Source of the DNA: a virus
Taxonomy: Duplodnaviria; Heunggongvirae; Uroviricota; Caudoviricetes
Direction: 5' to 3' (one strand)
IMG/VR virus record: IMGVR_UViG_2974665086_000001
Coordinates: 118,700-139,262 of that record
DNA length: 20,563 nt
The notes below the pieces were generated by a model that was given only the letters and a program-made list of their open reading frames with translations, had not been told where the DNA came from and did not search any database. Below, one piece after another: positions 9,512 through 20,563 of this stretch (its first letter is position 1; each line of letters begins with the position of its first letter). Position numbers and translations under genes: made by a program.

Positions 9512-9967
9512 ATGAAATATGTTTACTGCACGTTGCTTGCGGTCGTGGGTATCGTACTTGGTAGTTATGTTTTGTCCGGGCCGGATGAAGAAATCAAGTA
9601 CGATTACTCAGAATTATTAGCTGACCCAGTGTCAGAACTAGCACCGAAGGAAGTAAAGCCTGACTACAACACCATTCTGCTTTACACACGTGAGAACATA
9701 AGTTATGCGTGTGACAAGGCATTCTTTTACGGTCAAGACGGTGAGATAAACGGAAAGGAGAAACATAGAATAGTATCTGTGGTCGCAGAAAGATTTGGGT
9801 TGACAGACTTGGACAGACCTGCTATCGAAAACTTTATGGTGCACGCAACCGAGATGGGTTGTAGCGACCAGGCGGTTTTGTTAAAGTCGGACACCATCGA
9901 TTCATACACAGTTCAGCGCGGAAACCGCACCGCAACCTTTGACGCAGATACCGGAGCACGCAAGTGA
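9512..9967 (+). CDS. Membrane-anchored or secreted hypothetical protein
   Basis: Hydrophobic N-terminus YCTLLAVVGIVLGSYVL; 151 aa. Confidence 0.75.
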   Translation: MKYVYCTLLAVVGIVLGSYVLSGPDEEIKYDYSELLADPVSELAPKEVKPDYNTILLYTRENISYACDKAFFYGQDGEINGKEKHRIVSVVAERFGLTDLDRPAIENFMVHATEMGCSDQAVLLKSDTIDSYTVQRGNRTATFDADTGARK

Positions 9968-17021: not shown

Positions 17022-17354
17022 ATGGCAAGTCGCGTACTGGTCAAAGAAGCACTTATCATTATTGGTTATAGTCAGTCAGCAGCACTAGCATTAGCAGAAC
17101 AGAATGGGGATAATGATAGTGCACGTCATACCGAGGCTATTAGTCGGTTGGTGTTTGATTTGCTTTACAAGAACATGCATCACGATATTAAGGCAGATGC
17201 AGCACAAAGACTTAATTCAATGCACGATTTGATTCAATTCACAATCGAGAATGCAGAAAAGAAATACAAGCCAGAGGTGATTGCAGAATACGCAGAACTG
17301 CAAAAACTTAACCTCAGTCGTTTGGCGACAGTAATCAATGAGTGGCCTGCATAA
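17022..17354 (+). CDS. Hypothetical helical protein
   Basis: 110 aa, TAAGGAG RBS. Confidence 0.8.
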   Translation: MASRVLVKEALIIIGYSQSAALALAEQNGDNDSARHTEAISRLVFDLLYKNMHHDIKADAAQRLNSMHDLIQFTIENAEKKYKPEVIAEYAELQKLNLSRLATVINEWPA

Positions 17355-17935
17355 CTTAATATCAAGACTGGGCAAAATGGCCGGGTGGATGAGAGTTATC
17401 GTCCATTCGGCCATAGCTATATATACAGATAGCTTAAGTTATAGAGAGAAACATAGAGAACTTAATACATTGAATGCAGCAAAAGCTTATGGCCGATGTT
17501 GTTATTTTTTTGACGATTAGAGCATCATAACTTAATAGGCAGCACAGAGCTTAGGACAACATAAGAACATAGCTCTAAAGTTATATAGTGTACCCCGTAC
17601 GTTGAAGCAAATAGAGTGCTGCATATAAGTTAATGCGCCATATAGGTCAGAGTGAATTTGAATCGGATAAGATTTCATTTCTAACACAAGTGTACTAGTA
17701 ATAGCGAAAAAGCTTATTTAAACTTAATGGCAAAAACTATGCAATTTTGATCAAAAAACAACAAAAATCGATCAAAATTCATCAAAAACAGCTTAATATC
17801 GGTCAAAAACGATGAAAACTTAATGCAGCTTAAATAGCTATGACTTAATGGCTATCCGAGCAGAAAAGTTTTGTTTTCATATAGCTATGGCAGGCACTTG
17901 TTGTTTTTATCGGGTTATTTATAGCTAGACTTAAT
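17353..17935. repeat. AT-rich non-coding region with dispersed ACTTAAT heptamers and phased A-tracts
   Basis: ACTTAAT at 17354, 17460, 17530, 17722, 17818, 17843 and 17929; A-tracts start at 17732, 17743, 17753, 17763, 17774, 17784, 17805 and 17815. Confidence 0.75.
17377..17414 (+). terminator. 16-bp RNA stem with three G-U pairs
   Basis: ATGGCCGGGTGGATGA-gagtta-TCGTCCATTCGGCCAT; all non-Watson-Crick pairs are G-U on the + strand. Confidence 0.5.
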
Positions 17936-17998
17936 GGCGACCCCGGCGAATTAAGTTATATGCCGGCCTCGCATCAATTTCAAATAATGTTTGTGCCG

Positions 17999-18201
17999 GC
18001 AGCTTAGCCTAACCTAACTAAGGATAGCCTATGCTAAGTAAGGTTAGGCTAACATAAGTAAGGTAAGCCATAGCTATATAAGGCAAGCCTTACCTATGTA
18101 AACGAGACCTAACATGACGTGAGATTCAAGTAAGCATAGCCATAGCTATATTGAAACAAGATTCATGTTAGGCAACACTAACTAAGCATGACCTTAGTTG
18201 A
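17999..18201. promoter_or_regulatory. Tandem array of IdeR/DtxR-type iron boxes, 20-bp period
   Basis: 19-mers vs TWAGGTWAGSCTWACCTWA: 17999 (16/19), 18019 (16/19), 18039 (18/19), 18059 (16/19), 18079 (17/19), 18099 (12/19); also 18131 (14/19), 18163 (14/19), 18183 (12/19). Confidence 0.8.
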
Positions 18202-18586
18202 ATCCAGATTCAAATTGATTGTATTAGCGATTGTACCAACTAGCAGCATTGAACTCGTAAGTCAACAGTCAATTTTGCTGCACTACGCGAGAAACATTAT
18301 TTGACAATTCTTGAAACGTTTGCTTTGCCGTCTCAGATCGATTCTAAGCGACTAATACCTTGTTTGCACACAATCGTACTAGGTATGCGCTGAAAGTCGC
18401 TTAGCGTGCATCGTCGCAGGTCAGAGTGTTAAGAAAACGAAAGAAACACTGGTGTGTGATCTATGTCATATTGACAATTGTTGAATCGATTCTGTATCCC
18501 GCGTCATGTGCACACCGCCCGGAGAACAAACGAGAACCATGCTACAAAGAATAATACAGAAACTGTGATGCAGATCACATAGACAA

Positions 18587-18928
18587 ATGTTGTTTCAAGT
18601 CTCGTTTGGGGGTAATGTTCTCGTTGTAAGGCAAACGGAAACGAGAACGGGGCAGACGATGAGTGAGCAAGCGATCCGCGATTACTGTGTTAAGCATTCT
18701 GACTTTTGGAAAGGCACTGTTGTGTCTACGTTCGTGTCCGACAACTCGCACTATGCCGTAGTTCAGTTTCGTGACGTTGTAACGGCGGCGCAGTGGCTCG
18801 AAGCACAACGTGACCCGGATGATGCACTCATGCGAGCACTCGGATTCCGCCAGCTCACAGGCGATCTGTACGGGCCGGTAATCAGTGTTTACGAACCGGC
18901 CAAAGTATGCGTTAAGTTCGCAGACTAG
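18587..18928 (+). CDS. Hypothetical protein
   Basis: 113 aa; true start may be ATG 18659 (MSEQAIRD). Confidence 0.65.
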   Translation: MLFQVSFGGNVLVVRQTETRTGQTMSEQAIRDYCVKHSDFWKGTVVSTFVSDNSHYAVVQFRDVVTAAQWLEAQRDPDDALMRALGFRQLTGDLYGPVISVYEPAKVCVKFAD

Positions 18929-18957
18929 TTCTTCCATTCTTTCAGGAAAGGTTCACA

Positions 18958-19335
18958 ATGATCACTCTCGCCAAAGAAACCGACTACATTACGATTACCG
19001 GAGTGCAAGCAATATCCTGCGCAATGGATATGCGTAAGGGCACCATCGAACAAACACGTTCGGGTCGTTGCTGCGATACCGGACCGTTCTCGAATACCAG
19101 GGAATCCGACCGGGAAGAATTGCTTTACTCGTTGCTGATCTGGCGCGATAGCCCGGAAAGAATCAGCATGACTTTTATTCCAGACCGTTTGTGGTCGGAT
19201 GCGCCCGATTGGAATAATCCGGTATCGGTAATGATCGATTCTGGCGATGCTTGCGAGCCACACGAATATCGGTTCGATTACGTTCCGCACGGTTTCCAGT
19301 GGCCCAACGAGAACATCGATAATCGCTACCTATAA
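18958..19335 (+). CDS. Hypothetical protein
   Basis: 125 aa, GGAAAGG RBS. Confidence 0.75.
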   Translation: MITLAKETDYITITGVQAISCAMDMRKGTIEQTRSGRCCDTGPFSNTRESDREELLYSLLIWRDSPERISMTFIPDRLWSDAPDWNNPVSVMIDSGDACEPHEYRFDYVPHGFQWPNENIDNRYL

Positions 19336-19421
19336 CCAGCACGCGGGCACATATGAGAGTGTGTGCCCTATGGTGGATATAGTTCGGCTACCAACACACA
19401 ACGCAAACAAAGGATAATACA

Positions 19422-20279
19422 ATGAGCGAGAACACTGTAACCCTCGAGAACGCTGCACCGATCAACCGTGACGATATTGCGTTCTCAAAGAACGATATGA
19501 CCACCGCCCGGTTCTGGGGTATCCGTGAGGGCATGATTAAGCCCGGAACCAAGGGCAAGACACACTCCGACGTTCTCGTTGCGTGGCATATGGCCGGTCG
19601 CCCGATTGTGGAAGCTCCCAAAGCGTGGAAGGTTCCCGCTACGGACAAGCACGCGTTCTCTGCCTACTGCGAGGCTAACTCGCTCGAGGCTACGGAATCG
19701 AACTACAACGCTTGGGTTGTAGAAGATAAGCCGTTGCCCGTTGGGTACTGGGCACCTGAGACCAAAGCACGCATTACGTTCATCGATTCCGACGGTACAG
19801 AATCGACCGTAGACGTATCAGAGGATAAGTTGCGTGAGACTCGACTCGAACTGTCAGGCTCGTTGAACGGTCGCCCGGAATCGCGTCACTACATCATGGC
19901 TGCACAGTTGAACACCGACCAGCGACCTGTGAGCATGACTACTGCCAATGGTGCCCAGCACACAATCCGCGAGGCTATGGAAGATGACAAGCCTGCCGAC
20001 GTAATGGCCGGTTTTGTAGTGGAATGGCAGAGTAAGCGAGACAGCAACGTACTGCTACACGCACAGATCGCAGAGCTGCACGCTGCTATCTTCACTGCAC
20101 TCTCAGAGCGTGATGATGCACGTGCACAGCTCGAGGCTATGACAGTCGAGCGTGATGCTTTGATCGCAGCACAGAGCAAGCCAGCACCTGCTAAGCGTGC
20201 AAGCACACGTAAGGCCCCGGCACAGACAAAGCGAGCACAGGCAGCACAGGCTCAAAGCGTTATCGACCTCGACGCATGA
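19422..20279 (+). CDS. 285-aa protein with N-terminal Lsr2-DBD-like motif, coiled coil and basic tail
   Basis: TARFWGIREGMIKPGTKGKTHSDVLVAWHMA resembles Lsr2 [30 protein letters not shown]; heptad region LHAQIAEL..VERDALIAA; tail PAKRASTRKAPA. Confidence 0.8.
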   Translation: MSENTVTLENAAPINRDDIAFSKNDMTTARFWGIREGMIKPGTKGKTHSDVLVAWHMAGRPIVEAPKAWKVPATDKHAFSAYCEANSLEATESNYNAWVVEDKPLPVGYWAPETKARITFIDSDGTESTVDVSEDKLRETRLELSGSLNGRPESRHYIMAAQLNTDQRPVSMTTANGAQHTIREAMEDDKPADVMAGFVVEWQSKRDSNVLLHAQIAELHAAIFTALSERDDARAQLEAMTVERDALIAAQSKPAPAKRASTRKAPAQTKRAQAAQAQSVIDLDA

Positions 20280-20343
20280 GCGAGCACGGAGCAATCGCAG
20301 TATTGCTTGGACTTGTCCACATCGAAAAAGTGATCGCGCTACT

Positions 20344-20366
20344 GATAGCGATAATCATTATCGCTA
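20344..20366. promoter_or_regulatory. Fur-family-like operator palindrome
   Basis: TAGCGATAAT-C-ATTATCGCTA (10-1-10); 20344-20362 matches the classical Fur box GATAATGATAATCATTATC at 17/19. Confidence 0.45.
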
Positions 20367-20387
20367 GTGTGATCTGACACACAACTA

Positions 20388-20419
20388 GCCCGGACTTGAA
20401 TTTAGTTTCAAGTCCGGGC
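20388..20419. repeat. 13-bp inverted repeat containing TTGAA-N6-TTCAA
   Basis: GCCCGGACTTGAA-tttagt-TTCAAGTCCGGGC. Confidence 0.8.
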
Positions 20420-20429
20420 AATGTCATAT

Positions 20430-20537
20430 GTAGGTAAGCCTAAGTTAGGTAAGGCAATGCTAAGTTGAACTCGGATTCAAGTAAGGCCGGCCTTACCTAA
20501 GTTGAATCTCGTTTCAAGTAAGGGCAGGCTAACCTAA
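20430..20537. promoter_or_regulatory. Second IdeR/DtxR-type box array, 37-bp period, alternating with TTGAA-N6-TTCAA
   Basis: Boxes at 20430 (15/19), 20445 (16/19), 20482 (16/19) and 20519 (17/19); TTGAA-N6-TTCAA at 20465 and 20502. Confidence 0.8.
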
Positions 20538-20563
20538 GTGACGGAGGTCACCTTCCCCTACAT

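Follow-up and report, generated by a model that had tools for sequence, protein, structure and literature searches.

Near the end of a phage genome stands a row of 19-bp palindromes that resemble the boxes of the actinobacterial iron repressors IdeR and DtxR, and the question is which protein reads them and what the phage gains from it. The row lies within the 20,563-nt stretch of DNA analyzed here (the window), which forms the right end of a 139,262-bp phage genome (IMGVR_UViG_2974665086_000001). A first-pass annotation proposed that the units are sites for host IdeR/DtxR in an actinobacterial phage. The core of this proposal survives every computational test that we ran, and our preferred explanation is that selection maintains the units, in the terminal repeat of a phage lytic on Rhodococcus, as operator-grade sites for host IdeR, a member of the DtxR family; judged from sequence, we put the probability of this reading at about 0.62.

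The studied phage is taken as the lytic Rhodococcus phage Trina, with R. erythropolis as host. Trina is a virulent phage of cluster CE, and its isolation host is R. erythropolis RIA 643 (PMC13313380); the same paper makes no mention of iron or of Trina terminal repeats. The proposal presupposes an actinobacterial host that has a DtxR-family regulator, and this holds for Rhodococcus, an ideR homologue having been reported in R. erythropolis RIA 643 (PMC10986025). Trina genes give no match to either of the two DtxR-family Pfam domains, i.e., no phage DtxR homologue is found. The Trina lysin carries LGFP repeats, and the closest portal proteins are those of the Rhodococcus phages NiceHouse, Dorin and Francesca and of cluster CB, with those of large Streptomyces phages next.

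Two arrays of iron boxes in the terminal repeat

The window ends with the right copy of an exact direct terminal repeat, which contains two arrays (A and B) and a three-gene island. The features are, in window coordinates:

17704–20563, unstranded: right copy of the exact direct terminal repeat, 2,860 bp, equal to genome positions 1–2860 with zero mismatches
17719–17943, plus strand: terminus-proximal repeats, CTTAATG(G/C) motifs and A-tract repeats
17999–18117, unstranded: array A, six 19-bp palindromic units at an exact 20-bp period with a 1-bp free spacer
18118–18216, unstranded: composite tail of array A, weak boxes or one-dimer sites and TGAA-N6-TTCA, 37-bp period
18301–18444, plus strand: conserved non-coding element 3' of array A, 78% identity over 145 nt to NiceHouse 982–1126
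18587–18928, plus strand: open reading frame (ORF) of 113 aa, first gene of the island, no Pfam family, match only to a PHROG of unknown function
18958–19335, plus strand: ORF of 125 aa, no known family, weak homologue in the Dorin terminal repeat
19422–20279, plus strand: ORF of 285 aa, weak match to a Dorin protein annotated as 'Lsr2-like DNA bridging protein'
20388–20419, plus strand: perfect hairpin after the island, 13-bp stem, top carrying a TGAA-N6-TTCA palindrome
20431–20537, unstranded: array B, a one-dimer site and three boxes in composite units, 37-bp period

Array A had been described as six 19-bp units at an exact 20-bp period that match the iron box at 12–18 of 19 positions, and it is found as described. 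The units start at 17999, 18019, 18039, 18059, 18079 and 18099 and have 3, 3, 1, 3, 2 and 7 mismatches, respectively, i.e., five units deviate at 1–3 positions and the sixth, in which the right half alone is kept, matches at 12/19. Tandem Repeats Finder reports the 20-bp period at 18004–18101, with 4.9 copies and no indels. The window was searched for boxes with the 19-bp IdeR/DtxR consensus TWAGGTWAGSCTWACCTWA, allowing up to three mismatches and using shuffles as background. Eight matches are obtained in the 20.5-kb window compared with 0.04 expected, a number reached by none of 100 shuffles of the window; five of the eight lie in array A (17999–18097) and three in array B (starting at 20445, 20482 and 20519).

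The three weaker units that the first-pass annotation had placed after the sixth, up to 18201, are present but do not continue the 20-bp register. These weak boxes (18131, 18168 and 18183; TWAGS-N4-SCTWA type, 5–7 mismatches) follow at offsets of 32, 37 and 15 bp, and belong instead to a composite repeat with a 37-bp period. The same composite unit builds array B, which goes beyond the earlier description and lies, with all its parts, inside the terminal repeat; here, a one-dimer site at 20431–20444 precedes the three boxes (3, 3 and 2 mismatches), which are set apart by TGAA-N6-TTCA palindromes. Because the terminal repeat holds the whole region, every array unit is present twice in virion DNA, and all 16 boxes of the genome are located within the two repeat copies, with none in the intervening 133 kb. 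The distance from the start of the terminal repeat to array A is 296 bp, and that from the end of array B to the other repeat boundary is 26 bp.

The TGAA-N6-TTCA palindromes are found at 18152–18165, 18199–18212, 20397–20410, 20466–20479 and 20503–20516, which gives five per Trina repeat copy compared with three in the other 133 kb. Five are also present in the first 1.2 kb of NiceHouse, and none in Dorin or in the Corynebacterium phage Kimchi1738; they may be read by a protein that only cluster CE phages have. An assignment as the actinobacterial LexA box was rejected by eye, the C and G of GAAC/GTTC being absent.

A consensus promoter scan of the plus strand from 17300 to 20563 returns no promoter, the scan being a crude one that actinobacterial and phage promoters may escape. 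With no promoter-like site seen to overlap it, the array does not look like a textbook operator. The conserved element 3' of array A opens with TTGACA-N17-TTTGCC, its start is also recognizable in Dorin, and it may represent an unusual early promoter or leader. The element has no match in Rfam, where the only matches are two to microRNAs, at chance level and far below threshold, which makes an RNA element unlikely. The sequence TTGACAATTGTTGAA has a second copy at 18471, after the conserved element, and no tRNA is present in the window. Elsewhere in the Trina genome, positions 84599–86203 encode a Ro60-type protein with a TROVE domain and a Ro60 vWA domain (E-values of 1e-38 to 1e-59); cellular Ro60 proteins function together with Y RNAs, and a phage Y-like RNA may therefore exist.

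Between the terminus and array A lie four to five CTTAATG(G/C) motifs (at 17719, 17812, 17842 and 17928) and an A-tract repeat of the GATCAAAAA type (17749–17818, period 10/21). The start of the NiceHouse genome resembles the Trina terminal repeat, and CTTAATG recurs in its first 200 bp, at the left end. These CTTAATG and A-tract repeats probably serve the phage itself as signals for its ends or for packaging, and are separate from the iron boxes.

Agreement of the units with host operators

Work on C. glutamicum gives the same consensus, lists the operators of genes that are derepressed in a dtxR mutant, and reports that DtxR shifted all but one of the 31 motifs tested (PMC1382209). The 13 C. 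glutamicum seed operators (Table 1 in PMC1382209) depart from the consensus at ~3–7 positions by hand count, with a median of 4, and the phage units, with their 1–3 mismatches, are therefore at least as good as host operators. Each IdeR subunit reads one CCTAA quintet, a half site can bind one dimer, and the quintet must have C at one of its first two positions and T at the third (PMC8464063). This rule is satisfied by 31 of the 36 quintets in nine units, as against 9.6% of random genome pentamers. Scoring of the sites thus relies on the consensus, the quintet rule and the hand count in place of a weight matrix from published operators; a half-site matrix built from the unconstrained outer halves of 69 host double boxes agrees with the consensus and has low information.

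The period of array A has a counterpart in host genomes. When one genome per prokaryote species was scanned for two boxes separated by a 1-bp spacer, such double boxes at the 20-bp period were obtained from at least 120 genome contigs, Actinomycetota accounting for 75 of 80 among the matches listed. The genes behind the inspected double boxes code for ferritin, haem oxygenase, HtaA (haem uptake) and siderophore-type binding proteins. Since double boxes front iron genes, the 20-bp period is the host's own side-by-side placement of boxes. Exactly two units are present at 72 of the 73 inspected host tandem loci, and in a sample of 61 genomes from the Mycobacteriaceae, the family of the host, the number of boxes per genome has a median of 9 and a range of 0–21 (60 of the 61 carry boxes); Trina has 8 per repeat copy. 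The period had earlier been given as about two helical turns, which would place bound repressors in the same rotational phase. This is correct only as an approximation, since 20 bp corresponds to 1.9 turns and the phase is near-constant rather than exact.

A match of this kind could also be produced by a different host reader of TTAGG/CCTAA-type sites, e.g., a manganese sensor or another additional regulator of the DtxR family. Two or more proteins of this family are often encoded by actinobacteria, and sequence evidence cannot separate paralogues with similar sites. However, the match is to a consensus derived from iron-regulated operators, and the host double boxes of the same grammar sit at iron genes; we regard a ligand of this kind as improbable.

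Natural variation of array A

Selection on the units was assessed in wastewater and factory metagenome contigs from four studies, with ~90–95% identity across the repeat; some of these contigs are of low depth, and alignment within repeats can be ambiguous. The first-pass annotation had noted that the copies vary at degenerate positions with their symmetry kept, and the natural variation bears this out by respecting the W and S degeneracy. Units 1–5 and their spacers contain 22 variable sites, in 17 of which the consensus is retained or better matched:

Exchange of A and T at a W position, or of G and C at the central S: 8 sites
Change in the 1-bp spacer: 4 sites
Change towards the consensus: 3 sites
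Change at an already mismatched position: 2 sites
Change away from the consensus: 5 sites, including two at position 6, where conservation is weak

Changes away from the consensus thus make up 5 of 22, compared with 75% under neutrality (P ~4e-7), a pattern which indicates that the consensus-specified positions are under selection.

Array length varies as well, one contig being 60 bp (three units) shorter and another 60 bp longer, i.e., copy number changes by whole units. The variants map to 17987–18107, where 119 bp are replaced by 59 in one contig, and 45 bp are repeated and 15 added in the other. Such 60-bp steps among environmental relatives are in line with a tandem repeat that arose by slippage or unequal recombination, that has no ligand and that resembles the iron box by accident. 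Yet the units of array A differ from one another at ~1/4 of their positions with the palindrome kept, and substitutions avoid precisely those positions that the consensus specifies (P = 4e-7). Furthermore, eight boxes stand against a chance expectation of 0.04, and the motif recurs in the second array, in related phages and in unrelated phages, which together make an origin without a ligand very hard to credit.

Iron boxes in other phages

Conservation among related phages, which the first-pass annotation had named as a check, is partial. NiceHouse has three boxes at 283–341 of its 5.3-kb repeat, followed by the same composite of half-site and palindrome as in Trina, and in the R. equi phages Dorin and Francesca there is only one box, which starts at 285 and 284, respectively, and deviates at one position. 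The distance of the array or box from the genome end is similar in all four phages (Trina, 296; NiceHouse, 283; Dorin, 285; Francesca, 284), and the flanks of the boxes are unalignable except for one 145-nt element. An array at the inner end of the repeat is seen in Trina alone, with none in the repeats of NiceHouse and Dorin. Boxes are absent from three Streptomyces relatives and from three phages of cluster CB that share the host, and the trait is therefore not general.

Outside these relatives, phages of Corynebacterium vitaeruminis (Ceetrepovirus, a different family) carry five boxes at an exact 20-bp period, together with 28 strict 14-bp one-dimer sites (TWAGG-N4-CCTWA) at 15/30-bp spacing, of which fewer than one is expected. 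This occurrence is independent of that in Trina, and the hosts of both phage groups possess the same repressor. The five-box array of Kimchi1738, at 60.34 kb, directly follows ~250 bp of an ATAAAT-type AT-rich tandem repeat. The one-dimer arrays of this phage are located at 62.8–63.3 kb and 66.3–66.8 kb, the last one ~100 bp from the right genome end. By tblastn, Trina and Ceetrepovirus have only a DNA polymerase, a ribonucleotide reductase and a thymidylate-synthase-like gene in common, and no DNA-binding protein common to Trina and Kimchi1738 is detectable. The motif is constant across phage lineages and host genera and therefore points to a conserved host repressor, as a phage-encoded ligand would be expected to drift with its phage; since small DNA-binding proteins can escape tblastn, a shared phage ligand retains some probability.

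A blastn search of the array against 50,697 phage records retrieves Ceetrepovirus phages and NiceHouse only. In IMG/VR, a scan for two boxes at the 20-bp period gives three loci, which is about the chance level, and the relatives found there by their portal proteins are all fragments without genome ends. One of the three loci belongs to a 75.7-kb phage (2974621193_000001) with a 191-bp terminal repeat, in which four to five boxes are scattered over the terminal non-coding 1.2 kb (74.5–75.7 kb and 1–400), and an actinobacterial LexA-box-like sequence, CGAACATATGTTCG, is present at ~340. Infection with phage WC1 raises the expression of iron-uptake genes in the same host strain (PMC10986025). 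WC1 has no boxes, and its iron response is therefore context and not evidence for a decoy.

A phage protein as alternative ligand

The location of the arrays brings a ligand of the phage's own into consideration. According to this alternative, the units are iterons for a phage protein, i.e., an initiator, a small terminase or an end-binding protein, which would mark an origin, a packaging site or an end-processing site in the terminal repeat, and the likeness to iron boxes would be due to chance or mimicry. Iterons are phased direct repeats of ~17–22 bp, and the exact 20-bp period falls within this range. Array A lies 296 bp from the physical left end, a spacing that NiceHouse, Dorin and Francesca also keep, and 26 bp separate array B from the opposite boundary of the repeat. 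Moreover, the five to six phased 20-bp repeats are placed beside an A-tract in Trina, where the A-tract repeats lie ~180–250 bp upstream of the array, or beside an AT-rich tandem repeat that abuts the array in Kimchi1738, in the manner of an unwinding element. The last Kimchi1738 array is ~100–400 bp from the right end, the small terminase gene is at the left end, and a second, lineage-specific palindrome is interleaved with the boxes.

Several observations are, however, difficult to reconcile with a phage-encoded reader. The host consensus is kept by all four phage lineages, whose proteins are ~50% similar or not similar at all; Trina and Kimchi1738 keep it without a detectable DNA-binding protein in common, and both the 1-bp spacer and the degeneracy at W and S match what host operators show. 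The cluster CB phages and the Streptomyces relatives have homologous portal and virion modules and long terminal repeats, but no boxes, and the Trina terminus has a repeat family of its own, CTTAATG. The ORFs next to the arrays, i.e., the three plus-strand ORFs of the island, where GC content is higher, match no initiator or helix-turn-helix family, and none of them co-varies with the boxes. Homologues of the 285-aa ORF are encoded in the terminal repeats of NiceHouse and Weasels2; because Weasels2 is without boxes, this ORF does not co-vary with them, and the Lsr2-like protein was rejected as the box ligand for the same reason.

Taken with these observations, an iteron function is unlikely, and IdeR is a well-supported candidate ligand as far as sequence comparison can tell. 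Among the points that speak against IdeR are the interleaved TGAA-N6-TTCA palindromes and the A-tract and AT-rich neighborhood, which resembles an origin or packaging region.

Proposed consequences of IdeR binding

Trina probably loads or soaks up host IdeR by means of the arrays. Iron-loaded IdeR would occupy each 19-bp box as two dimers, with one subunit per CCTAA quintet, and, estimated from site counts, array A would be coated by ~10–12 dimers and array B by ~7, which corresponds to ~40 subunits per repeat copy. Two protein-coated stretches would thereby flank the three-gene island of the repeat. Both the binding to the arrays and what it achieves are steps that we infer, and for the latter, given binding, two possibilities are ranked about equally.

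The first possibility is a decoy: replicating phage DNA would lower the level of free holo-IdeR, and iron uptake would be derepressed and ferritin lowered at the time when the phage ribonucleotide reductase needs metal. Points in favor of a decoy are the abundance and the good match of the sites, the absence of a recognizable overlapping promoter, the larger arrays in Corynebacterium phages, and the ribonucleotide reductase encoded by both Trina and the Ceetrepovirus phages. The second possibility is an iron-dependent local role at the genome end or at the island, where bound IdeR would act as a boundary, as a roadblock or in end architecture. Here, the supporting points are the fixed distance to the genome end, which holds even with one box, the bracketing of the island, the interleaved palindrome, and the A-tract and AT-rich repeats. 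The single box in Dorin and Francesca would be too few for a decoy and its fixed distance to the end suggests a position-specific role; such a local role has to be weighed against pure titration, since relatives keep one box at the same distance.

If IdeR does bind, a lytic phage would reach the master iron regulator of its host through DNA alone, each repeat copy offering about as many sites as the whole host chromosome. This would provide infection with a simple route to reprogramming iron uptake and storage; alternatively, it would let the phage sense how the cell is supplied with iron. In addition, the packing of IdeR dimers on long site lattices could be studied with the 20-bp and 15-bp arrays as natural substrates. 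It is conceivable, although we would bet against it, that lytic actinobacteriophages in general capture the iron sensor at their ends, with arrays of IdeR/DtxR sites in their own replicating DNA acting as a protein-free anti-repressor that would turn the host towards acquiring iron.

Comparison with known systems

According to the first-pass annotation, no phage iron-box array is known to have been described, and this agrees with the literature searched on iron boxes, IdeR or DtxR in connection with phages, which yielded no such arrays. What appears to be new is the arrangement of a known binding site and the surroundings in which it occurs, with a single tox operator as precedent. Like actinobacterial IdeR/DtxR operators, the units are 19-bp palindromes made up of four CCTAA quintets, with one base pair between adjacent boxes and degeneracy at the same positions. 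Host sites are, however, single or paired, whereas the phage sites come five to six in a row with a second array in addition, are located in a viral terminal repeat, and have no recognizable overlapping promoter.

In the temperate corynephage beta, the promoter of the lysogenic-conversion gene tox has a single DtxR operator. This operator, which is among the DtxR sites listed in PMC1382209, is likewise a phage-borne site for a host iron repressor of the DtxR family. It differs from the Trina locus in that it consists of one operator over one promoter, whereas Trina, a lytic phage, has arrays without a recognizable overlapping promoter.

The origin of phage lambda contains four dyad-symmetric iterons, and iterons are read by an initiator that the element itself encodes, usually from a gene at or beside the iterons. 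The Trina array is similar in that its repeats of ~20 bp number four to six, are phased and dyad-symmetric, and lie beside A/T-rich DNA, but no initiator gene adjoins it and the motif is that of a host regulator. For titration, a counterpart is provided by datA of E. coli, a chromosomal locus with few sites that titrates DnaA. Both are clusters of sites for a factor that are proposed to lower its free pool and not to control an adjacent promoter; datA, however, is a host locus, whereas the Trina sites are on a replicating virus and would therefore become more numerous as genome copies accumulate.

For sites of a host factor within a terminal repeat, phage T5 offers the closest published case. 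Its injection stop region, at the inner, non-coding end of a long terminal repeat, contains DnaA boxes of the host in clusters, a role of DnaA at the stop site being a hypothesis only (Davison, 10.1101/866236). Common to T5 and Trina are a large, non-coding, repeat-rich stretch within a long direct terminal repeat and clustered sites, putative ones in Trina, for a host protein that is present when the DNA enters, and array B of Trina is also positioned at the inner end of its repeat. The protein and its site are different ones, however, NiceHouse and Dorin have no inner-end array, and two-step DNA transfer, which in T5 depends on pre-early proteins, is not known to occur in these phages. The parallel with Fur-type and DnaA-type clusters in terminal repeats suggests a wider rule by which host-factor sites would be placed at phage ends.

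As a separate observation, the T5 genome contains Fur-box-like matches at 228–252 and 9694–9712, with three mismatches, where none are expected by chance; the former position is near the left end of the terminal repeat and the latter is inside the annotated injection stop region.
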